Origin: an uncultured archaeon
GTDB taxonomy: Archaea > Asgardarchaeota > Lokiarchaeia > Sigyniarchaeales > SOKP01
Direction of reading: 5' to 3'
DNA: 37,175 nucleotides
NCBI GenBank assembly: GCA_964388035.1
Contig: CAYLZE010000046.1
Location: forward strand, 1-37,175
Of this stretch, positions 2,327 to 37,175 are shown piece after piece. Position 1 is the first letter of the stretch. Each line of letters opens with the position of its first letter. Made by a program: the position numbers and the translations under genes. A model generated the notes under the pieces. That model saw only the letters and a list, made by a program, of their open reading frames with translations, made no database searches and was not told where the DNA came from.

Positions 2327-4204
2327 ATGAATTTAGATATAAATAACAATTTTCAAGCTAATGATTCAATTATAGCTCTCATTGAAAATGTTGAGGATTA
2401 TGCAACTAGGAAAGAATGCATAGAGTGTTTGAACAATATTGATTTCAAAAATGAGATTATTTTTAAGTCTTTAGAGAATATATTAATCTCTGATGAGAAT
2501 AATGATATAAAATATGTTGCAGCAAAAGTAATCAAAAATAAATATTTAAATTTAGCATTAAATCCGTTTCTTTGGACATGTGAACATTGTACTTGTTATA
2601 AATGTTTAATTTTAATCATTCGCTCTCTAGGGGTCTTAGATGATGAGAATGTTAAATCATTTTTAATTAATAAGATTAAAAAACTTCAAATAGAAAATCA
2701 TGTAAAATTTGCTGATTCCTTGATTACGCAAGACGAGTTAGAATTATGCTCAAATCATCATCTTAGCGAGATTTTAATAAATCTTTTAACCATAGATTCT
2801 TTAAATAAAAAATTTGAACATTTGGATTATAAATTACAACAAGGTTTGGTTACTGAATTAGATTTTTCGCATGTTAACACAACCATTATTGATTGGAAAG
2901 AGCGTGAAGTTATTCAGGATCACTCAGATTTACTAGGAATTAAAAATTTAAAAAGTCTGAAAAAGTTAAAATTATTTCCCGAAGATCTTGTATTGAAAAA
3001 CGAATTCATATTTGAATGCTTACTTTCTATTCTAAAAGCTGTTGAGAAACTTCAAAATCATTTTTCTAAAGAAATTTTAATTTTCGAAATAAATCGTATA
3101 TATGGTTCTAAAGTTTCCGAAGTTCTAAATGATGTACTAGAACATTATTTAACTATATTTAATGTTCCTATACCAATTTTAGCAGATATTATCCGAAATT
3201 ATTATTCTATATTATTCTTGAAAAATAAATTTCCTAAAATTCACTATATTATGAAAAATGGACAAGTCAGAAAGATTGAACTAATAAATGCAAAAATTAT
3301 CACATTTCCAGATTTTATCATAAAAAACCTGACTTACCTCTCTCATTTAACATTAAAAAATTGTAATCTATATAAACTACCAGAGTCCTTAAATCTAAGC
3401 AAGCATCTAAAGGTTTTAAATATTGAAGGAAATAAGGTGGAGATTCTCCCCAAATGTCTATTTGAACTAAGATCCTTGAAAATCTTGAATTTAAAAAAGA
3501 ATAACTTGATTAAATTACCAATTATAATCAATAAATTAAAAAATCTCACGTATCTTAATTTAGCAAGTAATAAATTAACATCAGTACCTTATTCCATCGG
3601 ATCTTTAGTGAAATTAAGAGTTTTAGATTTATATAGTAATAAATTAAATAAAATTCCTGGATCCATAATCTTTCTACATAAATTAAAAATCTTAAATTTA
3701 GGGGCAAATAAACTCATTGGGTTATCAAAGCAATTTGGGTTCATCTCATCTCTTTCCCGATTAAATTTAAGTCATAACTATCTGAAATCTATTCCAAAAT
3801 CTTTTAAACACCTTAAATCATTAAGAGTATTAAATCTCGAGGGAAACTTGTTAACTTCACTTCCTCGATCGCTTAAACAATTAAAGCGTTTAGAATATTT
3901 AAATCTTAATGATAATCGATTAGCACATTTTTCTCTTAGCGCAGAATCTTTTATTTCCCTAAAATTCTTAGACATTTCTTGTAATAATTTGATATGGATT
4001 CCAAAATCTATTAAACGGCTTTCTAATCTTAAAAGGTTGGATTTAAGTCAAAACAAGATAATAGCGTTTTCAGAATCATTTTTTGCTCTAAAATCTTTAG
4101 AAGTGTTAATATTATTTGATAATCAAATATCTTCTATTCCTAATTCAATAGAAAAAATGAATAACTTAATTAAATTCGACATTAGTTTCAATTTAATTAA
4201 TTAA
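2327..4204 (+). CDS. HEAT-like/leucine-rich repeat protein
   Basis: About 13 tandem 23-aa LRRs (LxxLxLxxNxLxxLPxx) in the C-terminal half and a helical HEAT-like N-terminus. ATG at 2327 is preferred to TTG at 2270. Confidence 0.9.
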   Translation: MNLDINNNFQANDSIIALIENVEDYATRKECIECLNNIDFKNEIIFKSLENILISDENNDIKYVAAKVIKNKYLNLALNPFLWTCEHCTCYKCLILIIRSLGVLDDENVKSFLINKIKKLQIENHVKFADSLITQDELELCSNHHLSEILINLLTIDSLNKKFEHLDYKLQQGLVTELDFSHVNTTIIDWKEREVIQDHSDLLGIKNLKSLKKLKLFPEDLVLKNEFIFECLLSILKAVEKLQNHFSKEILIFEINRIYGSKVSEVLNDVLEHYLTIFNVPIPILADIIRNYYSILFLKNKFPKIHYIMKNGQVRKIELINAKIITFPDFIIKNLTYLSHLTLKNCNLYKLPESLNLSKHLKVLNIEGNKVEILPKCLFELRSLKILNLKKNNLIKLPIIINKLKNLTYLNLASNKLTSVPYSIGSLVKLRVLDLYSNKLNKIPGSIIFLHKLKILNLGANKLIGLSKQFGFISSLSRLNLSHNYLKSIPKSFKHLKSLRVLNLEGNLLTSLPRSLKQLKRLEYLNLNDNRLAHFSLSAESFISLKFLDISCNNLIWIPKSIKRLSNLKRLDLSQNKIIAFSESFFALKSLEVLILFDNQISSIPNSIEKMNNLIKFDISFNLIN

Positions 4205-4295: not shown

Positions 4296-5039
4296 TTTAA
4301 AATAGTATATAATTCCAATTCGGTCAACAAATTTTTAAAGAAAGCAGAGTACTATGCAAAATATCGCCCCAGCTATCCTTTTGTTATCATTAAAACCCTT
4401 AAAGAAAAAGGAGTATTACATGAAAAAGATAAGATCGCGGACATTGGGTCTGGAACGGGAATTTTATCCCGATTGTTTTTAGATTCTGGATATGAAGTAT
4501 GGGGGGTGGAACCGAATATCGAAATGAGAAAAGGTGCCGAAAAATTACTAACCTCTTACCAAAACTTTATAAGTATTCAAGGATCAGCAGAACATACTTT
4601 TCTCCCTTCTAATTCTTTTGATGTGGTCAGTGCTGGGCAACCTTTTCATTGGTTCAATCCAATAGAAGCTAAAAAAGAGTTCAAGAGGATTTTAAAGAGA
4701 TCTGGTAATGTTCTTTTGGTCTGGAATAGAAGGGAAGATAGTGGAACACCATACGGCATCTTTTTGAGAAAAAATTCAAAAAATTATGAAAAGATAAAGT
4801 GGAAACATAAAAATCTTGATTTTTCAAATTTCTTCAAATTTTATGACCACATTCAGATAGATAACCCTAAAAAGTTAAATTAGGAAGATTCAAAAGGATT
4901 AACTCTTAGTTATTACTATTTTCCGAACCAATTTTCCCCAGAAATGGAAGGAGAATTAAAGAGTATTTTTAATCAACGGAAAACAGATGGTATCTTCATT
5001 CTAAATTATACAATACATTTACATTATGGGAGAATTTGA
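4296..5039 (+). pseudogene. Class I SAM-dependent methyltransferase, disrupted (no canonical start, internal TAG)
   Basis: The same frame as ORF 4473-4883 extends upstream to NSVNKFLKKAEYYAKYRPSYP...IADIGSGTGILSRLF with no ATG/GTG/TTG. After the TAG at 4881-4883 it continues as EDSKGLTLSYYYFP...ELKSIFNQ...HLHYGRI to TGA at 5037-5039. Confidence 0.75.
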
Positions 5040-5177
5040 ATAATAATATTTAAAAATTGTATGATCGAATAATTTGAAGAATTAATAAATGCAATAAGTA
5101 GGACGAGGAAATTCTGACGAAAAAGAGAGATCAATTATATATTTTTAAAAATATTTTAGATTTTCCAATTTATAGTT

Positions 5178-6272
5178 TCAGTCACTTGAATATTTATAAG
5201 CTATGCTACAAGTTCCCTCATGCGAGACCATGCAAGGGCCAATGGGATTCATTGGTGTACACGTGGTTCTGAAAAGTTTGCATTCTTGAGGATGCAATTT
5301 ACCCGTCATTACTAAGTGGCAAGAGCACCCAGGAGGGATATCCGTAGATTTTTTTATTTCAATATCGAATTTTTCATCCGCATCATATTTTTGATATAAA
5401 GATTTAATTTTCAACCCTCCATCCATTATTCTTCCGATTCCCCTCCATGGGGAGGATATTGTCTCAAAAACATCATTGATTATTTTCTGTGCAACCAGAT
5501 TTCCTTCAGGTTTAACCACACGAGAATATTCATTTAAAGTGTCATATTGCTTATTCTTAATAAGTTTTAAAAGCATTAATAGTGATAATAACACATCATT
5601 GGGCTCAAATCCCGCAATTACATTTGGAACGTGATAAGCATCAGAAAATAATCTAAAAGGTTTTAGTCCGATGATGCTTGCAACGTGTCCAGGAGAAATG
5701 AATCCATCAATATTAAGCCTGTCAATACTCATCAATAATTCTAATGCGGCAGGAATGAGCTTATGAGCGCATATCACTGAAAAATTTGGAGGAGGTTGAG
5801 CTGAAATTTCATAGCCTATTAATGGAACCGTGGTTTCAAACCCAATAGCAAAAAAGATTACTTCTTTAGACGGATTTTCTCTCGCGATTTTTATTGCATC
5901 ATTAGGCCCGTATACAATTCGCACATCTGCACCATTTGCTTTTAGTTCTGCCAGAGAGAGGGTGGTGGCAGGTACTCGAATCATGTCTCCAAAAGTTGCA
6001 ATAATTGTATCGTCTCGTTTTCCCAACTGAATCGCTTTATCAATATCGGCTGCAGGACATACACAAACAGGACAACCGGGTCCTGAGATAATTTCTAATT
6101 CGGGGGGCAATAAAGATCGTATTCCATATTTAGAAATGGTATGTTCATGAGTTCCGCATACGTGCATTATATGAATGGGTCTATTCAATTCTGCACAAAC
6201 CTTTTTTATGGAAGTAACAACCTTTTTGGTAAGGTCCTTATTCTTTAATGCACCTTGTCCCGGAAAGCTCAT
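5178..6272 (-). CDS. hypD: Hydrogenase maturation protein HypD
   Basis: Motifs CGTHE, GPGCPVC, GFETT, PGHVAS and GPCMVSHEGTC. Confidence 0.97.
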   Translation of the reverse strand: MSFPGQGALKNKDLTKKVVTSIKKVCAELNRPIHIMHVCGTHEHTISKYGIRSLLPPELEIISGPGCPVCVCPAADIDKAIQLGKRDDTIIATFGDMIRVPATTLSLAELKANGADVRIVYGPNDAIKIARENPSKEVIFFAIGFETTVPLIGYEISAQPPPNFSVICAHKLIPAALELLMSIDRLNIDGFISPGHVASIIGLKPFRLFSDAYHVPNVIAGFEPNDVLLSLLMLLKLIKNKQYDTLNEYSRVVKPEGNLVAQKIINDVFETISSPWRGIGRIMDGGLKIKSLYQKYDADEKFDIEIKKSTDIPPGCSCHLVMTGKLHPQECKLFRTTCTPMNPIGPCMVSHEGTCSIAYKYSSD

Positions 6273-22320: not shown

Positions 22321-23727
22321 ATGAGTACTATTAAAGAGCATCATGAAGTGCCCACATATATACACTCCAAGAAGATAATGACTTCCTATTCCGCGGGCGA
22401 ATTCGTATATGAGTTCACTCAAGGTATTTTGGTTTTCATTTTATTTTATTTTTATGAAGTGGAAGTAGGATTGGGAGCCTGGTTGACGGGTATAGCGTTA
22501 ATGATCTATTCTCTATGGGACGCAATCAACGATCCCTTAATTGGATATCTATGTGATCGACCAAGAGGATTTACTAAAAAATGGGGTCGAAGATTTCCTT
22601 GGATGATAATTGGATACATCCCAATGTTGATCTTTTTTCTATTAATTTTTTCACCTCCCAATATTGATGCCCAAACTCAACCTTGGACGATATTTATATG
22701 GTTAGTTGTAGTTTTATGCCTATTTGATACCTTTGAAACTTTATTTACTTCTAACTTTTTCGCATTATTCCCGGATAAATTTAGAGGAGATGATGAACGA
22801 GTAAAAGCTTCTTGGATTTACGTGTATTTAGGATTGATTGGGGTCGTCCTTGCTAATTTACTCCCGCCCATAATAATTATATACGGAAATTTGGGATCTT
22901 TTGCTTTAATGGCTTGGATTGCAATTATTATTAGTCTCGCTAGCGGGGTCGTAATGATACCCGGAATTAAGGATGATAAAAAATCTGTAGAAGAATATCT
23001 TTCAAAATATGATAAGATTGAAAAGGAATCTTTTATAACCTCTTTAAAAGCAGCTATTAAACATAAATCTCTCATCGGATTTCTATTTTTGTTTCTTGCT
23101 TGGATAAACTTATCTAGCATGGTTCAATCCTCCTTTTTATATGTAGTCCGTTTTGTTTTATTAGGAGAAACTGGCGATGTGTTAATTTTAATGGTCATGT
23201 TTCTCTTAGGAGTCATAATAGGCATTCCTATATGGTTTAAATATTATAAAAAGGTAGAAGATAATCGGAAAACCATGATATACACATCCATTGCATGTGT
23301 AATAATGACGGCCCTCCTTAGCTTTATGACGACATTAATTTCACTTCTTATTGTTATATTTATATGGGGCATAGCTCTTGGCGGCTTTTGGGTAATTTAT
23401 ATTCCTACATTTTCGGACGTCATCGACGAATCGATAGCAACAACCGGAATACGACGAGAAGGATTTTATTCAGGAATCAGACGATTTTTCAGCAATTTTT
23501 CCCGTGTAATTTTATCACTCCTTTTCGCCCTTGTCCATGATCTTACAGGATTTGTGGAAACATCTGACATTCAAACACCTTTGGCCAATATGGGAATATT
23601 ACTTCTTTTTGGAGTAGTTCCCGCGAGTATCATGGTCTTAGGATTGATTATCTTCTGGAGATTATATGAAATTACTCCCGATAGGGCAAAATCAATAAAG
23701 GAAAAACTTGCAGAGCTTAAAATCTAA
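22321..23727 (+). CDS. MFS transporter, glycoside-pentoside-hexuronide (MelB-like) family
   Basis: WDAINDPLIGYLCD, WGRRFPW and DVIDE...RREG. About 12 TMs. Confidence 0.92.
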   Translation: MSTIKEHHEVPTYIHSKKIMTSYSAGEFVYEFTQGILVFILFYFYEVEVGLGAWLTGIALMIYSLWDAINDPLIGYLCDRPRGFTKKWGRRFPWMIIGYIPMLIFFLLIFSPPNIDAQTQPWTIFIWLVVVLCLFDTFETLFTSNFFALFPDKFRGDDERVKASWIYVYLGLIGVVLANLLPPIIIIYGNLGSFALMAWIAIIISLASGVVMIPGIKDDKKSVEEYLSKYDKIEKESFITSLKAAIKHKSLIGFLFLFLAWINLSSMVQSSFLYVVRFVLLGETGDVLILMVMFLLGVIIGIPIWFKYYKKVEDNRKTMIYTSIACVIMTALLSFMTTLISLLIVIFIWGIALGGFWVIYIPTFSDVIDESIATTGIRREGFYSGIRRFFSNFSRVILSLLFALVHDLTGFVETSDIQTPLANMGILLLFGVVPASIMVLGLIIFWRLYEITPDRAKSIKEKLAELKI

Positions 23728-28548: not shown

Positions 28549-29640
28549 TCAAGAATTCTTAAGTTCTTTAAAGTATAATTTTCGGTGCTTTCGATCCATT
28601 TGATTAAATTCTTTCTCGGCTTCTTCGGAGGGAAGTACGATAATCGTTCCATCTTCTTTCTGAATAACGCAACCAGAATTGACCAAAAGCTCGTAATTCT
28701 TTGATGTTTCTTCTGAATCTCCGAAACAAATCAATTGGCAATTTCCGCAAGTTAATTTTGTATCTCTAATCATTTCTAAAGCGCTTTTATCTCCAATCAT
28801 CACTGAGCTTAACTCTAAATTTTGTTCCAATTTAGACATGTCAATTCCACCAGGTTCGTCGGGATTTTTTGGCCATTTAGACGCGTTAGTTACACATAAT
28901 GAAAAAAGTCGGGTAACATCTTTATCCGTTTCAGGGTAAGGATATCTCCCCGGCGACCATGTTGACCACTTCTTTGATTTATCTAATCCTGATAGCCCAC
29001 CGCATACGATTTGACACCTCCCGATATTTCTCCTTTTTGCGTAAGTGAAAGTGCTATCCCCCAAAGAAATAGATTCAGTCTCTTTAGTATCAAACATTCT
29101 CATTGCACAAACCTTGGTACATAATTTACATTTTGAGCAGAAGGATTCTTCCTCGGGCATAGGTTCGGTAGGAGCAAGTATTGCGGATGTAACTAAACAT
29201 CCTAAAATGATAGCACAACCTTGCCCTTTCATTCCAACATTTCCCGACCAGCCAAAAGAACCCACGCCGGATCTCACTGCTATATACCTGAGTGCAATCT
29301 CTGGAAACATTCGTAATTCCCATCCGGGAATCTCTTCTCTATATTTGAAATTAGGAAACACCTCCACAGCATCATATCCCTTATTTTGGAGTAATTTCGA
29401 AGTTTCTTTAGCCAATAAAAAGGCTCTCACGTTTGTTTCGATATTATCTATCTCGTGATCTACCCTTCCATTAGGCATTTCTTTTTTCAAAAAGGATCGT
29501 ATTTTTTCTTTATTTAATGGGAGTGCAAAACATATGGCGGATTCTGCGCTTGGTAATGGATAAGTTATATCAATACTTGGTGGTCCTCCTTGTAATGTTT
29601 TCTTGGTAGCCACGCCAACTCTTAAAGCACCACTATCCAA
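28549..29640 (-). CDS. Epoxyqueuosine reductase (QueG)/reductive dehalogenase-like cobalamin Fe-S protein; start uncertain
   Basis: AVRSGVGSFGWSGN (cobalamin-domain AGLGxxGxxG-like), CSKCKLCTKVC, CQIVC and CGNCQLIC. The frame stays open 12 codons upstream of the TTG. Confidence 0.8.
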   Translation of the reverse strand: MDSGALRVGVATKKTLQGGPPSIDITYPLPSAESAICFALPLNKEKIRSFLKKEMPNGRVDHEIDNIETNVRAFLLAKETSKLLQNKGYDAVEVFPNFKYREEIPGWELRMFPEIALRYIAVRSGVGSFGWSGNVGMKGQGCAIILGCLVTSAILAPTEPMPEEESFCSKCKLCTKVCAMRMFDTKETESISLGDSTFTYAKRRNIGRCQIVCGGLSGLDKSKKWSTWSPGRYPYPETDKDVTRLFSLCVTNASKWPKNPDEPGGIDMSKLEQNLELSSVMIGDKSALEMIRDTKLTCGNCQLICFGDSEETSKNYELLVNSGCVIQKEDGTIIVLPSEEAEKEFNQMDRKHRKLYFKELKNS

Positions 29641-30051: not shown

Positions 30052-31776
30052 ATGAGTGATTCGATAATTATTAAAAACGGAATTATATTTGATCCGATCA
30101 ATAATATAGATGGGGAAAAAAAAGAGATTCACATTCAAAACGGGAAAATTGTTGAAAAGGTAAAAGGGGATGCGAAAGTAATAGATGCCTCTGGCATGGT
30201 TGTCATGCCTGGTGGGGTAGATATACATTCCCATATCGCGGGAGCTAAAGTAAATTCGGGAAGATCTTTTCGCCCCGAGGACAAACATTTCGAAGCTACC
30301 ATGAAAAAAACAAAGATAACTCGAAGCGGAACAGGATTTTCAGTACCTTCTACTTGGATAACAGGATATAAATATGCCAAATTGGGATATACCACCGTTT
30401 TTGAACCTGCAATGCCCCTTCTTGAAGCTCGCCATACTCATGAAGAATTCTTAGAAATGCCCATTATTGATAAAGGAGCTTTTCCGATATTAGGAAATAA
30501 CTGGTACGTGCTCGAGTATGTTAGAGAAAATGACATGGAAAAATTGGCAGCCTACATTGCCTGGGTTCTTAAAGCAACGAAGGGTTATGCAATTAAAATC
30601 GTTAACCCCGGAGGAGTAGAAAACTGGGCTTGGGGCAAAAATTGCGAAAGTCTTGATGATCCTGTTGTGTATTGGGATGTAACACCAAGACAAATAGTGG
30701 AAAGCTTAGCAAAAGTTAATGAAATGTTAGAATTACCCCATTCCATACATATTCACTGCAATAATCTGGGACATCCTGGTAATGTAAATCATACCATTGA
30801 TACCTTCAATGTTACTAAAGACTTGGATATTAAACGAAAGGATCGAAAAACAAGTTTACATTGCACTCACGTTCAATTTAATGCGTATAGTGGAACAAAT
30901 TGGAAAGATTTTAAATCGGGCGCATCTGAAATTGCTGAATATGTTAATGCAAACAGTCATGTCACTGTTGATGCAGGACAAGTTGTTTTTACAAAATATG
31001 CAACCACCACCATGACTGGAGATGGTCCATGGGAATTTGCCCTTCATCACTTGGGCGGAGTAAGCCCCTGGGGCAATAAACCAGGAGTAAAATGGATTAA
31101 CGGTCAAGTAGAAGCAGAATCCGGTTCAGGAATAGTTCCCTATTTCTTCACGCCATCTGTTGGTGTAAATGCCGTGCAATGGGCAATTGGGCTAGAAATC
31201 ATGCTATTAGTAAAAAATAAATATCAAATCTTCATGACCACCGATCATCCAAACGGAGCACCTTTTACGACGTATCCCATCGTAATTAAATGGTTAATGG
31301 ATCGCAAGGCAAGAAAGGAAATGCTTGAAAAGGTTTCTAAAAAAGCCAGTACAGATACGACTCTCCCGGATCTTGACCAAGAATATTCATTGAATGAACT
31401 GTGCATTGTCACCAGAGCAGGGACCGCTCAATGCTTGGGATTGAAAGATAGAGGGCATATAGGTGTAGGTGCTATAGGTGATGTATCCATTTATAAGTTA
31501 GATCCTAATAATTATGACGGGAAGGCAATTGAAAAAGCTTTTTCCGCCGCAGCATACACCTTAAAAGACGGACAGATTGTTGTGAAAGACGGAGAAATCG
31601 TTGCCGCACCCATGGGAACTCTTCTTTGTGCGGAAGGAAAAATCAAGGAAAGCGTATATGACGCAACGCTTGAGGATGTAAAGCTACATTGGCGAGACCA
31701 TTATAGCATTAATTTCAACAATTATGCCGTTCAAGATGTTTATGCTCCTAAAGTTAAAATTGTTAATGGAGTATAA
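30052..31776 (+). CDS. fwdA: Formylmethanofuran dehydrogenase subunit A
   Basis: GGVDIHSHIAG, PSTxxTGYxYAxLGYTT, KIVNPGG, SIHIHCNNLG, QWAIGLE and TTDHPNGAPF. Confidence 0.96.
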   Translation: MSDSIIIKNGIIFDPINNIDGEKKEIHIQNGKIVEKVKGDAKVIDASGMVVMPGGVDIHSHIAGAKVNSGRSFRPEDKHFEATMKKTKITRSGTGFSVPSTWITGYKYAKLGYTTVFEPAMPLLEARHTHEEFLEMPIIDKGAFPILGNNWYVLEYVRENDMEKLAAYIAWVLKATKGYAIKIVNPGGVENWAWGKNCESLDDPVVYWDVTPRQIVESLAKVNEMLELPHSIHIHCNNLGHPGNVNHTIDTFNVTKDLDIKRKDRKTSLHCTHVQFNAYSGTNWKDFKSGASEIAEYVNANSHVTVDAGQVVFTKYATTTMTGDGPWEFALHHLGGVSPWGNKPGVKWINGQVEAESGSGIVPYFFTPSVGVNAVQWAIGLEIMLLVKNKYQIFMTTDHPNGAPFTTYPIVIKWLMDRKARKEMLEKVSKKASTDTTLPDLDQEYSLNELCIVTRAGTAQCLGLKDRGHIGVGAIGDVSIYKLDPNNYDGKAIEKAFSAAAYTLKDGQIVVKDGEIVAAPMGTLLCAEGKIKESVYDATLEDVKLHWRDHYSINFNNYAVQDVYAPKVKIVNGV

Positions 31777-31864
31777 AAATCAATAATATAACATTTTTAT
31801 TTCCTATTTCTCTTTACAATTTTTGCATTTTTTGAATTCTAATTTTGAAATTTATTTAATCATT
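31612..31864 (+). repeat. Direct repeat copy 1 (last 55 codons of fwdA plus 3' flank)
   Basis: Aligns with 36865-37117 at a constant offset of 5253 bp at both ends. Manual count gives 24 mismatches in the 165 coding nt. Confidence 0.95.
31781..31822 (+). terminator. T-rich putative fwdA terminator
   Basis: CAATAATATAACATTTTTATTTCCTATTTCTCTTTACAATTT lies just after the stop and is identical at 37034-37075. Confidence 0.5.
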
Positions 31865-31991
31865 CATGAATTAAAATTTCCCTTTTAAAAAATTGAAAGT
31901 TAAGAGAATATATATCATGAAGATGAAATAATAAAAAAAACCGCATTTCCATATTCACTATTTTTTTGAATTAATTCTTCAAGAAAAATAT

Positions 31992-32222
31992 CTATTTATT
32001 AGAAGGCAATCGTTTTTCTGACCATAAAACGAATTGGACACGAGTGAGAAGAAGCATACCTGCTAAAAAAAATCCGATACTGATATATAATATCAATATG
32101 TATTGAGATTGGGGCGATGTATAAAAAGTAATTACCCAAATTATGATAAAAGCGAGGCTAACTACGATAATGAATAGTGCGATATTTCTTAAATTTTTAT
32201 TTGTTTTATTGATGATTTCCAT
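31992..32222 (-). CDS. Small membrane protein (2 TM)
   Basis: 76-aa ATG-started ORF with two hydrophobic segments. Confidence 0.65.
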   Translation of the reverse strand: MEIINKTNKNLRNIALFIIVVSLAFIIIWVITFYTSPQSQYILILYISIGFFLAGMLLLTRVQFVLWSEKRLPSNK

Positions 32223-32389
32223 AAAATGTTGATGTAATTCTAATTCTTATATATCTATAGTAATCTGAAGTTCTATTTAATAAATCATATTAAATTAATT
32301 AAATAGAATAATAAAGACTTATATTCCATATTAATTAGTTTTAATTCAGAAAAAAAAGAGTAATTTGAAGAATATTAAAAATTTACATC

Positions 32390-33016
32390 CTAAATTTTAT
32401 TAGTAACCATATTAATGGTGATTAGGTCATCGAGATAATGTATCTTTAATAATCTTCTAACCACTTCATTTAGTATTATAGAGATAGGAATTAAAAAGAA
32501 AGTAAAAAGTGAGGAAAATAACGGGTAAAATATATAGACAGCATAGAGTTGCCAATTAAAGAAAGAGATTATTACTTCATAATAGACATATGCTGTAATT
32601 ACCAAACCGATATATTGCCAAAGTATACCAATTATAATTGCGAAAATCTCTCCAATAATTCCTTTCTCTATTTTATGATTTAGAACCGATATGATTCCTC
32701 CTGCAAATCCCGAGGAAACTAACATGAAAATTAGATATGCTGGTAATGATTCTCCACATCCGAAGATTAAGCAGTATAAAAACTCACCTAATACAGAACC
32801 GACCATAGAAATGAATAAAGCTTCCCAAGGTCTAAATAATATACCTGCTGAAAAGATAAAAATAGACCCAAGATTTAAATAGAAAATTATATTGTAGGAT
32901 TCTGAGCTATTGTAAAAAAGAGCAATTCTCAAGAACGAGGTAAAGAAAGAAATTAAACCAATATAACCCATAAGGATTATTAAGAATTGCTTTACATGAT
33001 TCCCTTCTTTTTCCAT
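32390..33016 (-). CDS. Integral membrane protein, ECF transporter S-component-like
   Basis: About 6 TMs, with NLGSIFIFSAGILFRPWEALFISMVGSVLGE resembling the S-component pattern. ATG at 33016 avoids overlap with the upstream gene. Confidence 0.6.
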   Translation of the reverse strand: MEKEGNHVKQFLIILMGYIGLISFFTSFLRIALFYNSSESYNIIFYLNLGSIFIFSAGILFRPWEALFISMVGSVLGEFLYCLIFGCGESLPAYLIFMLVSSGFAGGIISVLNHKIEKGIIGEIFAIIIGILWQYIGLVITAYVYYEVIISFFNWQLYAVYIFYPLFSSLFTFFLIPISIILNEVVRRLLKIHYLDDLITINMVTNKI

Positions 33017-33047
33017 ACCTTTCTGAACACTGCTGATAGTCTTACTA

Positions 33048-34082
33048 TTATTTGTCAACCTGACCACCCCTGTTTAATTTTTCTTTATTTATTGGATTAT
33101 TTTTAGCAACCATAATAATGGGTTTGATTTTATATATCCAGACTACCGCACAACCTATCATGATGCTGGTAAAAACCATGAAAGTACTCGCAATTAGACT
33201 CGTATTAGGCATTTGGTTTTCACTTCGGTTGATCAAGGTAAGAATATCATAGGAATGAAATCCTTTCGATAATTCTTCACTTAGATTAACAGTAGCGTGT
33301 CCTTTATAATCATTAATAGCAGTATAGAAATATAGAATTCCATTCTTTAAGTCATTAATATTCGAGTATCGGGTAAATTTGCCTTGATGAGTTGCTTTTA
33401 AAATTGACAAACAGTATTCAAGGGATACTTCTTGCATGCTATCAAGCATTTTTTCGGCAGTATCATACCTCCAGCATGGTTTCCTACCTTGAGCCACGTT
33501 AAAATTTGTAGAAAGTAAGTAATTTCCACTTTTTCGAGTAATAACCACTTCTCCATCTAATCCAATACCAATTATGGCAGCATCTCCTGTTTTATCTGCG
33601 AAATGAACTTGACAAGGATATAATTCCAATTGAATAAGATTATAATCCTTGATCCATTCAATAACTTCCGCAACCGTAGTGCATTCTTCTAAAATTTTGG
33701 TAAATACATTGTTTTGCATATAATCAATTTTATTCGGATCACGTTTCACTGGAGTGGAGGGTACCCAATTCTCATCAGCACTTAATCCATATTCGTTCAT
33801 CCCACCTAATGGGTTAAATACGTGCTGATAAGTGAATCCATATAAAACCTTTCCATATTTTCCTTCTGTTGCCGGAAAAAAGTACATTCGCATATGATCA
33901 GGGAAATAATCTTCATTATTACAGAAATAAACTATATCATTATTCTTCGAGGTAACTGTGAAAACGGTACAAGTGTTTGTAATGGAATGGGTAGAAGAAC
34001 ACATTGTTATGAATGTAAAAAGTAAAAAACTTGAAAATAAAAATAGAAATCCTATTTTCCTTCCCAATGTCTTTTTATTCAT
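33048..34082 (-). CDS. Secreted, membrane-anchored Ntn hydrolase (choloylglycine hydrolase/penicillin V acylase/C45-like)
   Basis: Signal peptide, then CTVF (nucleophile Cys), NNED, GGMNEYGL, HFADKTG, TNFN and CWRY. C-terminal TM segment. Confidence 0.85.
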   Translation of the reverse strand: MNKKTLGRKIGFLFLFSSFLLFTFITMCSSTHSITNTCTVFTVTSKNNDIVYFCNNEDYFPDHMRMYFFPATEGKYGKVLYGFTYQHVFNPLGGMNEYGLSADENWVPSTPVKRDPNKIDYMQNNVFTKILEECTTVAEVIEWIKDYNLIQLELYPCQVHFADKTGDAAIIGIGLDGEVVITRKSGNYLLSTNFNVAQGRKPCWRYDTAEKMLDSMQEVSLEYCLSILKATHQGKFTRYSNINDLKNGILYFYTAINDYKGHATVNLSEELSKGFHSYDILTLINRSENQMPNTSLIASTFMVFTSIMIGCAVVWIYKIKPIIMVAKNNPINKEKLNRGGQVDK

Positions 34083-34217
34083 AGATTTTAAGCACCATAA
34101 ATTTTTATTAGATTATAAATTACATAGTATAATTTATTTTATAAACATTACTAAGAATTAATACTCTAAAAATACACTTTACATATAGAAGAATAAAAAA
34201 AAGGAGCAAAGCAGGAA

Positions 34218-34922
34218 ATGCAGAAGGAAAATTCATCTTACACACCACCGGAAAAGTCTTTGAAAGAAATTAATAAGAAAAAGAGGGCGCGTTCTAAGGA
34301 AAAAAAAGCTCAAAAATTTGAGAAAATTTTAGATAAAGGTATTGAATTATATTGTCAAAATAAATTCAGTTTAAAAAAGTTGGCCAAACACATGGATATG
34401 TCCATGCCAAATCTTTATCATTACGTTAAAAGTAAACGGGAGCTCTGGATTGCTATCCGTAAGAGATATTTTAGAGAACTTAGACATAAACTAAATAACA
34501 TTATAAAAAATCATAATGGTCAATATAGAGATTTAATAATTAAATTAGGTGTAGCATTTTTAGAGTTTTCAGAAGAAGATTATCAAAGATTTGATTTCAT
34601 GTTTTTAATTCCAGTCCCCTTCTCTAAAAAACTCGGACCAATAGAGAAAAGTTATAAACAGTTTAATTTATTGAATTTAATCAAAAATGTAGTTCAAAAA
34701 GCTATTGATGCAAAGGAAATTAAAGAACTAAATACTATAGCACTAACTTTTTTTTTTTACCAATTGGCCTTAGGTACAGCAATAGTTGAACGTAATCTTG
34801 TTCAAATTAAAGAAGAAGTATCTGAACCAGTAAAATTAGATACAAATCCAGTTGATATTAAAGAAAATAGAAATTTTTTATTAGATCAATTGCGTAAATT
34901 TTTAATTTTAATGAGTTTATGA
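34218..34922 (+). CDS. TetR/AcrR family transcriptional regulator
   Basis: HTH FSLKKLAKHMDMSMPNLYHYVKSKRELW. Confidence 0.9.
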   Translation: MQKENSSYTPPEKSLKEINKKKRARSKEKKAQKFEKILDKGIELYCQNKFSLKKLAKHMDMSMPNLYHYVKSKRELWIAIRKRYFRELRHKLNNIIKNHNGQYRDLIIKLGVAFLEFSEEDYQRFDFMFLIPVPFSKKLGPIEKSYKQFNLLNLIKNVVQKAIDAKEIKELNTIALTFFFYQLALGTAIVERNLVQIKEEVSEPVKLDTNPVDIKENRNFLLDQLRKFLILMSL

Positions 34923-35030
34923 AAGAGATTAGCATTTAATACTTATAAAAATAAATTTCATTTAAATTGCATTTTTTTCCGAATATTTATTTAAGAGTTT
35001 AAGTTAGATCATATAACTTATTATAAAAAA

Positions 35031-36446
35031 GTGATTGATTTGATAGAAAGTGTTAAAAAAGAAGAAAAACCACAAACAGCATCTACATTGAAAATGCTGT
35101 CATATTCTCTCACTTTTTATGTGAGCAATATTGTTCTCTTAGCATATTCTTTTATTGGCTTTTACTTTTACGAGGTTGAAGTTGGATTAAATGTTACACT
35201 TGTTGCAATAGCTCAAACAATCTACGCAATTTGGAACATGTTTAACGACCCACTTGTAGGATATTTAACCGATAAGCCAATGCCCTGGACTAAAAAATGG
35301 GGCATGCGAGCACCTTGGATTATAATAGGTGTAATCCCCACAGTAATCTTCTTTTATCTTATTTTTACCCCTCCAGAGTTAGATCCAAACAATCAACTGC
35401 CTGTTTTTTTATACATGCTCATTATGACTTGCCTTTTTGATGCATTTTACTCTATTTTTACGGAACATTATTCAGGTGGATTTGCAATTCATTTTCGCAC
35501 GGAATCCGAGCGGCATAAAGCAAGTTTAATGACTGCAATATTAGGCACTTTCGGAACCCTAACAGTCATCATTATTCCTCCCATGATCTACCAATATGGT
35601 GATAAAGCATCCTTCGCACGTGCAGCGGGAATAGGTGTTTTAATAATGGTAGGAGCAATAATTTTTATGATACCCGGAATAAAAGAGAATGATGAAATAA
35701 AACAAAGATTCCTTCATGGTTATGCGACAGCAGAAAAAATCTCATTTTGGCAAACGATGAAATACGCATTTAAAGCAAAAAATTTTATGATCTCTCTTTT
35801 AGCCTATACATTATATACCGTTTCATATACGTTAGCGGGTGCTACGGCTATATATTTTATGAAGGATGTGTTATTAATGAAGGAGGAAGAAGCTATAATT
35901 CTTCCAAATGCTCTCAACATGCTATTTACTCTTATTTCAATGCCAATTTGGATAAAAATTGGACCTAAAAGGCTTGGACAAAAAAAGATGTATGCACTAG
36001 GTCTGTTGTGGATGGGATTGGCTTATATCCCCGTATTATGGTATACGCAATATATTTGGGCACCCATTTTAGCTGCCATTGGAGCAATAGGAGCTGGTTG
36101 TTTCACAGTAATGGTAATGCCTATTGTTTCAGACTGCTATGATGAAGTTGCCACCTTCACGGGCAAGCACCAAGAAGCGACCCTTTTAGGAATTAGAAAT
36201 TTTTTCATTCGCATTTCTATTATTCTTCAGAGTGTTATTATAGCAGTAGTTCATGAACTCACTCATTATAATCCCGATCCCTTTGCCATACAAACACCCT
36301 TGGCAATTTTAGGAATCAGACTTACTAACGGACTAATTCCTGCATTATGTCTATTCATTGGTGCTTTTATAATGTTGAAATTTTACGATTTAGAGGGAAA
36401 AAATAAAAATAACGTGATCAAAAAATTAGAAGGATTAGGTATATAA
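35031..36446 (+). CDS. MFS transporter, GPH (MelB-like) family
   Basis: WNMFNDPLVGYLTD, WGMRAPW and SDCYDE. About 12 TMs. Paralog of 22321-23727. Confidence 0.92.
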   Translation: MIDLIESVKKEEKPQTASTLKMLSYSLTFYVSNIVLLAYSFIGFYFYEVEVGLNVTLVAIAQTIYAIWNMFNDPLVGYLTDKPMPWTKKWGMRAPWIIIGVIPTVIFFYLIFTPPELDPNNQLPVFLYMLIMTCLFDAFYSIFTEHYSGGFAIHFRTESERHKASLMTAILGTFGTLTVIIIPPMIYQYGDKASFARAAGIGVLIMVGAIIFMIPGIKENDEIKQRFLHGYATAEKISFWQTMKYAFKAKNFMISLLAYTLYTVSYTLAGATAIYFMKDVLLMKEEEAIILPNALNMLFTLISMPIWIKIGPKRLGQKKMYALGLLWMGLAYIPVLWYTQYIWAPILAAIGAIGAGCFTVMVMPIVSDCYDEVATFTGKHQEATLLGIRNFFIRISIILQSVIIAVVHELTHYNPDPFAIQTPLAILGIRLTNGLIPALCLFIGAFIMLKFYDLEGKNKNNVIKKLEGLGI

Positions 36447-36592
36447 CAGAATGCAATAAAAAAATGGATTTTTTTTTTTTTAATATAATAGGAATCAATT
36501 GAGGTGTCTTCATTTTTAAGGAATATATAATTTAACGAATAACTTGTTCTCCATTCTTCTTTTGTTTTCAAACTTTAAATTCGTTTCAATAC

Positions 36593-36656
36593 TAAAAGAA
36601 AAAAAGAATCGTGGACTTTAAACTCGTTTTCAGACGCAATTAAGTATCTTCCACGA
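36593..36656 (-). terminator. Putative hairpin plus U-tract at the end of the cysS fragment
   Basis: Inverted repeat TCGTGGA (36609-36615) / TCCACGA (36650-36656), followed on the minus strand by a long T-rich tract. Confidence 0.35.
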
Positions 36657-36864
36657 GAATACCTAGTTCTCTCAATGATTTCCTAATGATATCACTGATT
36701 TCATAATTTTTCTCTTTCTTAGTTAAGCACGTATACCTTTTATGATTTCAAAGAGTTCCGTTATTAGTTCACCTATGTCATCAAAAGAACTTCCTAACCC
36801 TAAACCAAACTCTTTTGTAATCCAGAATTGCCCAAATTCTTGATTAACATTATCACTTAAATCA
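36640..36864 (-). pseudogene. cysS: Decayed 3' fragment of cysteinyl-tRNA synthetase
   Basis: The minus strand reads ...ELITELFEIIKGIRA*LR, then with a 1-nt shift EKNYEISDIIRKSLRELGILVEDT*. This matches the CysRS anticodon-binding C-terminal pattern (RxxxRxxKxY/WxxA/SDxIRxxLxxxGIxxED). Confidence 0.75.
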
Positions 36865-37029
36865 ATGGGCATACTTTTATGTGCTGAAGGAAAAATTAAG
36901 GAGAGCATATATAATGCAACACTTGATGATGTAAAGCTCCATTGGCGAGACTATTATAGCATTAATTTCAATAATTATGCAGTTCAAGACGTATATGCTT
37001 CTAAAGTCAAAATCGTAAATGGAGCATAA
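36865..37029 (+). pseudogene. fwdA: Orphan 3' fragment of fwdA (54 aa)
   Basis: Translates MGILLCAEGKIKESIYNATLDDVKLHWRDYYSINFNNYAVQDVYASKVKIVNGA*, which is 47/54 identical to the FwdA C-terminus. Confidence 0.92.
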
Positions 37030-37117
37030 TAACCAATAATATAACATTTTTATTTCCTATTTCTCTTTACAATTTAAATACATTTTGTATTTCAATTTTG
37101 AAATCAATTTAATCATT
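36865..37117 (+). repeat. Direct repeat copy 2 (fwdA 3' end plus flank)
   Basis: Partner of 31612-31864. Confidence 0.95.
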
Positions 37118-37175
37118 TACTAATTGAGTGTATTTTTGATTTTTTCCTTTTGACTGAAATTTAAAAATCATTTAT

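Follow-up and report, generated by a model that had tools for sequence, protein, structure and literature searches.

Homology-facilitated illegitimate recombination (HFIR) is thought to cause 'C-terminal displacement' at Rhs and type VI secretion system (T6SS) effector-immunity loci (PMC5361080; PMC3240628). A comparable arrangement is found in Escherichia coli, for which the passages of PMC13626634 that deal with it, citing Hill et al. 1989, describe e14 and phage 21 at the icd gene and the icdC pseudogene. Here we describe a locus of an uncultured Lokiarchaeial archaeon (assembly GCA_964388035.1, contig CAYLZE010000046.1) at which the 3' end of fwdA, the gene for subunit A of formylmethanofuran dehydrogenase, is present twice, the second copy lying 5 kb downstream of the first and directly beside a truncated piece of cysS, the gene for cysteinyl-tRNA synthetase (CysRS). 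From the structure of this locus we conclude that it is probably a scar left when two Lokiarchaeial lineages about 15% apart underwent a single, non-reciprocal recombination, which took place without an integrase. The block between the two copies is no mobile island with machinery of its own. We know of no experimental HFIR in Asgard archaea.

The window analysed is the whole contig, C46, of 37,175 nt. It belongs to a metagenome-assembled genome (MAG) of 5.47 Mb, called G000 below, with 211 contigs, a GC content of 33%, a completeness of 96.7% and a contamination of 7.3%. The smallest contig kept in this assembly has 2652 nt, and the assembly was taken as built with k=55 since contig ends overlap by 55 nt. 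Comparisons included G001, a genome of the same genus, and the locus L159 of a near relative (GCA_054387215.1, JBQSJH010000296.1). The sequence of C46 occurs in salt-marsh metagenome runs.

The fwdA gene is intact (30052-31776, plus strand, 574 aa). Its product behaves as a full-length member of the curated family TIGR03121, with a score of 776.5 bits (cut-off 392.75) and residues 5-567 covered; it is the single full copy in the assembly and is 83% identical in amino acids to FwdA of G001. A repeat search and a MAFFT alignment both recovered an ungapped direct repeat of 261 nt, 85% identical, at 31612-31872 and 36865-37125, and no further copy was detected in the assembly. The true homology extends over 256 nt, because a miniature inverted-repeat transposable element (MITE) begins at 37121 and the final 4-5 nt are a chance match to its first bases. 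Copy A (31612-31867, plus strand) thus consists of codons 521-574 of the working fwdA with their stop codon, and of the next 91 nt. Copy B, or psi-fwdA (36865-37120, plus strand), is made of 54 codons and a stop, still open (36865-37029), followed by the equivalent 91 nt; it matches NF042911 (E 5e-8) and, in the TIGR03121 profile, positions 515-566 only. The spacing of the repeat, 5253 nt, had been given by an earlier reading of the window made without database searches (the sequence-only reading), as had its substitution counts, which proved exact: 24 mismatches in the 165 coding nt, affecting 21 codons, 14 of them synonymously and 7 with an amino-acid replacement.

The 91 non-coding nt of the two copies are 84% identical and include a perfect 42-nt run just 3' of the fwdA stop codon (31781-31822 on the plus strand, equal to 37034-37075). 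This tract is the longest exact match between A and B (P=0.02 across the whole repeat, P=0.0004 within the non-coding part), and it is not conserved 3' of fwdA in relatives. Gene conversion could account for it, as could a crossover at this point during integration of a circle, or constraint on a terminator region. Scans for tRNA genes, Rfam families, promoters and terminators were empty or uninformative.

The substitutions between A and B carry the mark of purifying selection (dN 0.065, dS 0.78, omega 0.08). Random placement of 24 substitutions is expected to replace the amino acid of about 16 codons, and none of 4,000 simulations gave 7 or fewer. A model in which A was constrained while B evolved neutrally after an in-situ duplication predicts about 13 replacing codons against the 7 observed (P=0.005). 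From this bias and the failure of the neutral model we deduce that A and B diverged mostly as working fwdA ends in separate lineages. Consistently, when about 115 fwdA 3' ends were compared, A and B were mutually nearest at 85% nucleotide identity, the best other match being 78% for A and 74% for B; their separate lineages would thus be more closely related than G000 and G001 are. The view of the sequence-only reading that both copies had been functional alleles of different lineages, and not a fresh duplication, was thereby borne out.

The constraint has not been equal on both copies. Copy A retains every family-invariant residue, whereas the replacements T523I, H550Y and P566S of copy B fall at positions that are 82-98% invariant, and copy B is farther than A from every outgroup by about the entire A-B dN, so that nearly all of dN lies on the B branch. 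Both observations indicate that B is a redundant piece on which selection was relaxed for a short time. No fwdA with I523, Y550 or S566 turned up when genomes were scanned with the copy B peptide, and these residues are thus not a known lineage signature. It is conceivable, if doubtful, that the still-open copy B, which starts with ATG, has been kept as a small protein of 54 codons. A sliding-window nearest-neighbour comparison of fwdA with nine relatives, the nearest of them about 75% identical in nucleotides, showed no resolvable switch that would mark a mosaic breakpoint.

The left border of copy B is of another nature. Immediately upstream, at 36663-36863 on the minus strand, lie the last ~67 codons of a cysS gene, a 5'-truncated pseudogene (psi-cysS) covering the C-terminal extension of the long form of CysRS and interrupted by in-frame stops at 36723-36725 and 36672-36674 and by a short deletion. 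It is 44% identical in amino acids to residues 575-630 of the CysRS of G001, aligns with 10 long-form CysRS sequences and matches the cysS 3' end of L159 at 69% nucleotide identity. In a genome-wide search it was the sole cysS-like sequence in G000 (E 3e-11). Its homology stops 1-2 nt short of the first base of copy B. At 36864|36865, two non-homologous gene ends, psi-cysS on the minus strand and psi-fwdA on the plus strand, both 5'-truncated, therefore meet head to head at a novel joint with 0-3 nt of possible microhomology, at most 3 nt being shareable; this is the form of an illegitimate joint. Seen along the chromosome, the truncated cysS and fwdA 3' ends abut in their native orientations, which gives the head-to-tail b|a joint of a repeated segment. 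Since both ends are truncated and keep these orientations, the joint is of the tandem-duplication or integrated-circle type, the unit being bounded by fwdA codon 521 and cysS codon ~575. The long CysRS form itself is a trait of a subgroup of these archaea (G001, L023:7810-9759; proteins P0003-P0011), with ~640 aa instead of ~480 aa, and its C-terminal extension comprises three repeats of the motif W..KEL....GSFD.RG.LI.

A cysS fragment next to fwdA is in line with the gene order in relatives. In G001 the order is an Fe-S gene (minus), fwdA (plus), the CysRS gene (minus, convergent and 0.2 kb off), then genes for proteins of 170, 937 and 234 aa. The convergent fwdA-cysS pair was found at 28 relatives' loci with spacers of 0.18 to ~5 kb, the spacer being ~0.2 kb in the two closest lineages, G001 and L159. 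The distance of 4.9 kb between the fwdA stop and the end of psi-cysS in G000 lies inside this range. On the other side, the conserved left neighbour of fwdA encodes a 363-aa Fe-S protein (28549-29640, minus strand), Fer4/QueG-like by weak Pfam and NCBIfam matches, which has 75% amino-acid identity in G001, where the divergent arrangement with fwdA is also kept. In L159 this gene, which in G000 and G001 stands between a 475-aa amidohydrolase gene and fwdA, is missing and a 484-nt spacer takes its place; the upstream side of fwdA is thus variable too.

No CysRS catalytic domain (PF01406) was detected in the G000 assembly. As cysS is present once in 55 of the 60 genomes of the family, and homologues of the 170-aa, 937-aa and 234-aa genes of G001 sit at the very start of G000 contig C29, where a PBP-like gene lies, the missing cysS is most simply ascribed to an assembly gap between the end of C46 and the start of C29. 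Such a gap would be expected to span ~2.5 kb, below the size of the smallest contig kept. The closest CysRS proteins, P0002 and P0121, were considered as the resident cysS product and rejected; they belong to a G001-like MAG (87% nucleotide identity to G001) and were used for synteny information only.

The structure was checked at read level with independently built k=31 Logan contigs from four salt-marsh runs, X1 to X4, which may include the source sample and have a depth of only 3-6x; runs X5 to X14, with small shares of the sequence, do not enter the evidence. The boundary between copy A and the cargo is bridged by contigs of X1 (31542-32027), X2 (31703-32153) and X4 (31793-32148), and the left boundary of copy B by a contig of X3 (36783-36945) without mismatch. 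No contig skipping the 5253 nt, as expected from an empty, excised or popped-out site, was found in the four runs. Run X3 also holds a contig that differs from the cargo's left end at 20 of 176 nt (~89% identity, window 31997-32172); a related lineage thus has at least part of the block and is a candidate for the other parent. Apart from this, X2 and X3 contain Logan contigs at depth 18-22, 4-5x higher, which match only window 31836-31987 and have flanks unlike the window. This segment reaches from the last part of copy A into the cargo and has no second copy in G000; a search of 31823-32000 against the 60 family genomes gave low-complexity matches only.

These elements can be assembled into a single event. 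One parent (type L) would have carried ~4.9 kb of accessory genes in the spacer between fwdA and cysS, and the other (type R) a short spacer like that of the closest relatives. An illegitimate joint would have linked cysS codon ~575 of type L to fwdA codon 521 of type R. The exchange would have been finished by homologous recombination elsewhere, with a linear fragment anchored on one side as in HFIR, or alternatively by integration of a circularised chromosomal segment with fwdA codon 521 and cysS codon ~575 as its limits. The product would be one whole fwdA, in which copy A completes the 5' part, and presumably an entire cysS beyond the right end of the contig, psi-cysS and copy B being the redundant ends left at the joint, where decay has begun. 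The MITE would have landed later, or already lay, 91 nt after copy B.

HFIR, one of the two routes proposed by the sequence-only reading, is the event type that fits best. That reading had also held that the new 3' end was imported and the old one displaced. The structure is symmetrical, and the left or the right block may be the incoming DNA, copy B with its right flank as well as the cargo; the claimed direction is therefore not established. As the closest relatives have short spacers, type R is the likely ancestral form, which slightly favours that direction. With C-terminal displacement at Rhs and T6SS loci the locus shares the absence of an integrase and an illegitimate joint, and on the reading favoured here it would also share the entry of DNA from a relative by a homology anchor in a conserved gene, the gain of new genes and the displacement of the old 3' piece downstream as an orphan. 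It differs from them in that a core C1-metabolism gene, in an archaeon, is concerned and not a polymorphic toxin, that the orphan is homologous to the new end instead of being a different toxin tip, and that a second orphan, of cysS, stands at the joint.

The geometry of the joint is also that of a tandem duplication, or of a Campbell-type 'pop-in' integration of a circle, which have in common with this locus the head-to-tail b|a joint, the flanking direct repeats and a unit that could be lost again if the repeats recombined. The stretch between the 3' ends of fwdA and cysS, both included, might accordingly have been duplicated in situ; ordinary homologous recombination would later have put a diverged allele in place of the working fwdA end, or of the side of copy B, or else the cargo would have been inserted separately into the first unit. 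At least three other loci of G000 have local 3'-end duplications, one of them, on contig C41, with the same head-to-head joint and 92-94% identity, and the seemingly stronger decay of psi-cysS than of psi-fwdA would also suit this history. Here, however, the units are 15% apart with a synonymous bias, and one holds a 5-kb cargo where the other would have a short spacer and a MITE, a difference in sequence and content which implies that they were not copies of one another at birth; the 7 replacing against 14 synonymous codons, with ~13 replacing codons expected, are likewise not those of initially identical units. Without an imported allele, an omega of 0.08 with a dS of 0.78 is rejected (P=0.005). 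With one, near-identity should be left to the right of the crossover, whereas the 45 nt to the right of the 42-nt tract differ by ~30%. More events are required in any case, and we consider this history unlikely. Copy B could also be the stump of a complete second fwdA, with its own cysS, from which a deletion removed everything between cysS codon ~575 and fwdA codon 521. The final structure would be the same, and purifying selection on B would be explained if the second copy had worked for long. Against this, a large duplication or acquisition followed by a precise deletion is needed, no degenerate fwdA remains are found left of 36865, and two close fwdA copies occur in none of 31 relatives, 80 metagenome loci and 24 further genomes. 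The sequence-only reading had itself raised a truncated second fwdA in relatives as an objection to its proposal, and in view of these searches we hold this origin to be quite unlikely.

Even less probable is a decayed site-specific integrative element that used the fwdA 3' end as its attachment (att) site and has since lost its integrase, the other route that had been proposed from the sequence. Diverged direct repeats do bracket the insert and leave the gene whole, as reported for icd and icdC in the passages cited above, and the perfect 42-nt tract inside the repeat could pass for an identical att core; its position in mid-repeat, past the stop codon, and its other possible explanations were given above. 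With e14, as those passages present it, the locus shares a working metabolic gene with an alternative 3' end, a diverged C-terminal pseudogene beyond the insert, and the direct repeats. But e14, a prophage, has an integrase and is excised upon SOS induction, whereas here the cargo is of chromosomal type, no recombinase is found and the right end of the insert is a fragment of the chromosomal neighbour cysS. Pfam and NCBIfam searches revealed no integrase, transposase or other recombinase domain among the cargo open reading frames (ORFs) or in 19 other ORFs, each of 130 aa or more, of the 37-kb contig; there is no tRNA gene or Rfam RNA in the block or the rest of the contig, and no inverted terminal repeat of the block. 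None of 127 relatives' loci has cargo homologues, or a second fwdA fragment, beside fwdA, and no excised or empty form was seen in the four runs. The Asgard 'aloposons' (PMC8813620), considered as a further comparison, integrate at tRNA genes and bear giant genes, and are not comparable. Finally, the assembly or binning might have joined two co-occurring strains. The MAG has low depth besides its 7.3% contamination, ~89% variants co-occur with it, and the contig ends in a repeat 50 nt past copy B. Yet the exact words common to A and B do not exceed 42 nt and none occurs at 36864|36865, so that a k=55 graph offers no false path and a de Bruijn chimera is unlikely; the k=31 contigs bridge both internal boundaries in other runs without mismatch, and a chimera would not produce a truncated, stop-bearing cysS fragment. 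The possibility of unspanned junctions between two strains, also voiced in the sequence-only reading, is thus answered by the independent contigs, and we regard such an artefact as highly improbable.

Several points weigh against a single recombination between two lineages. Decay seems to have gone further in psi-cysS, which has two stops and a deletion, than in psi-fwdA, which has none, and this could mean two events. The inter-lineage origin is drawn from only 54 codons, and the 91 non-coding nt are more similar than the synonymous sites, which calls for an extra assumption, constraint or gene conversion. The read support comes from low-depth contigs only. The second unit and the intact cysS would lie in sequence to the right of the MITE, which is missing from the assembly, and a true loss of cysS, with reliance on the SepRS route, is conceivable: SepRS is present in G000 (C24:26906-28438, TIGR00470, 477 bits). 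The closest relative of G000 is only 75% identical in nucleotides, and no near type-L or type-R genome was found; a metagenome scan with FwdA returned the 80 loci mentioned above, the best only 78% identical in amino acids, with no close genome of either type and no empty site. Exact-protein look-ups retrieved no other contig with the same FwdA or the same MFS protein.

The event that we favour, recombination between two diverged lineages, is of a known kind, and the locus is a new example of it in a lineage where such events are little documented. Gene gain in Asgard archaea without viruses or integrative elements is little known, and the locus would offer a datable, base-resolved example of recombination between lineages. 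It identifies the fwdA-cysS spacer as a variable slot in this family. It also illustrates that such events break MAG assemblies, the sole cysS of G000 having probably been lost in the resulting gap, and orphaned gene ends of this sort could serve to measure homeologous gene flow in uncultured archaea. Being a single locus with a known event type, it changes no model, and its interest for the study of gene flow in Asgard archaea is moderate.

Comparison of the G000 contigs each with itself revealed at least 3 further intact genes that are trailed, 0.8-2.3 kb downstream, by an 85-94% identical and partly stop-bearing copy of their own 3' end. The genes at the three loci, L156 (C2:111164-111659 against 112473-112969), L157 (C6:36221-36684 against 37649-38110) and L158 (C41:188-639 against 2965-3415), encode a GH116 glycosidase, an HGSNAT-like acyltransferase and an M20 peptidase, the last on C41. 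There, the orphaned M20 end is preceded directly on its left by a 3' fragment of the downstream amine-oxidase gene (2664-2923, ~92% identical to 4940-5201), again a joint of the tandem-duplication type. No integrase or transposase was found between the genes and their orphaned ends at the three loci. A common hidden element was rejected, as the inserted ORFs have no homology to each other or to the fwdA cargo. It is tempting, if doubtful, to see in such loci a general route of integrase-free gene gain in Lokiarchaeia, in which frequent recombination between co-occurring lineages diverged by 10-15%, following for example an exchange of DNA between cells, inserts spacer cargo beside conserved genes and orphans gene ends. 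The further 3'-end duplications would be other products of such a route.

The MITE that truncates both the repeat homology and the contig is represented by its left end (37121-37175, plus strand); the element has ~300 nt and the terminal inverted repeat TAATTGAGTGTATTTT.... C46, C73 and C121 all finish with the same 55 nt, while C105 and C133 begin with the opposite end of the element; these two were rejected as continuations of C46, their flanks being unrelated to the fwdA locus. The end sequence has copies of 85-94% identity in 36 of the 60 family genomes, often at contig ends, and is multi-copy in 12 of the 13 genera, with 15 matches in G016 alone. Six relatives have complete copies, 297-301 nt long, whose termini are inverted and which contain no ORF, as is characteristic of MITEs. 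The element has conserved internal CCGAC/GTCGG motifs and often causes contigs to break; no autonomous partner was identified. It resembles the Stowaway/IS630-type MITEs in its length of ~300 nt, its terminal inverted repeats, its lack of an ORF and its multi-copy, family-wide distribution, and it may share their TA target duplication. Its role at this locus is different, that of a bystander and not of a visible cause of the duplication.

The cargo between the two copies is organised as two small divergent operons. The leftward one includes a doubtful 76-aa ORF (31992-32222, minus strand) that has no family match and no paralogue in the genome and may not be a gene, a 225-aa membrane protein, weakly ECF-S-like (32390-33067, minus strand; PF07155 E 1.5e-4, below cut-off), and a 344-aa protein of the C45 family, acyl-CoA:6-APA acyltransferase or Ntn-hydrolase-like (33048-34082, minus strand; PF03417 E 2e-8; NF040521 E 2e-14, the latter below cut-off). 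The rightward one encodes a 234-aa regulator, weakly TetR-like (34218-34922, plus strand; PF00440 E 0.006), and a 471-aa MFS_2 or GPH-type cation symporter (35031-36446, plus strand; PF13347 E 1.7e-51). These families are expanded in this lineage. The pair of C45 and membrane-protein genes is found again on contigs C122 and C45 of G000 at 33-51% amino-acid identity, the TetR-like regulator has 8 or more paralogues in G000 (32-45% identity), among them one beside an MFS gene on C181, and MFS_2 genes number more than 50 in G000 and dozens in relatives, the best match in a relative being 48% identical. The cargo is thus a lineage-typical gene set that fills the variable fwdA-cysS spacer, as such genes do in relatives, and not the foreign islet that the sequence-only reading had seen in it. 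No MFS_2/GPH-type transporter was found in the genus g4; the expansion of this family, which is very large and also noted at 22321-23727 in the window, takes the form of tandem arrays in relatives such as G036 and G069.

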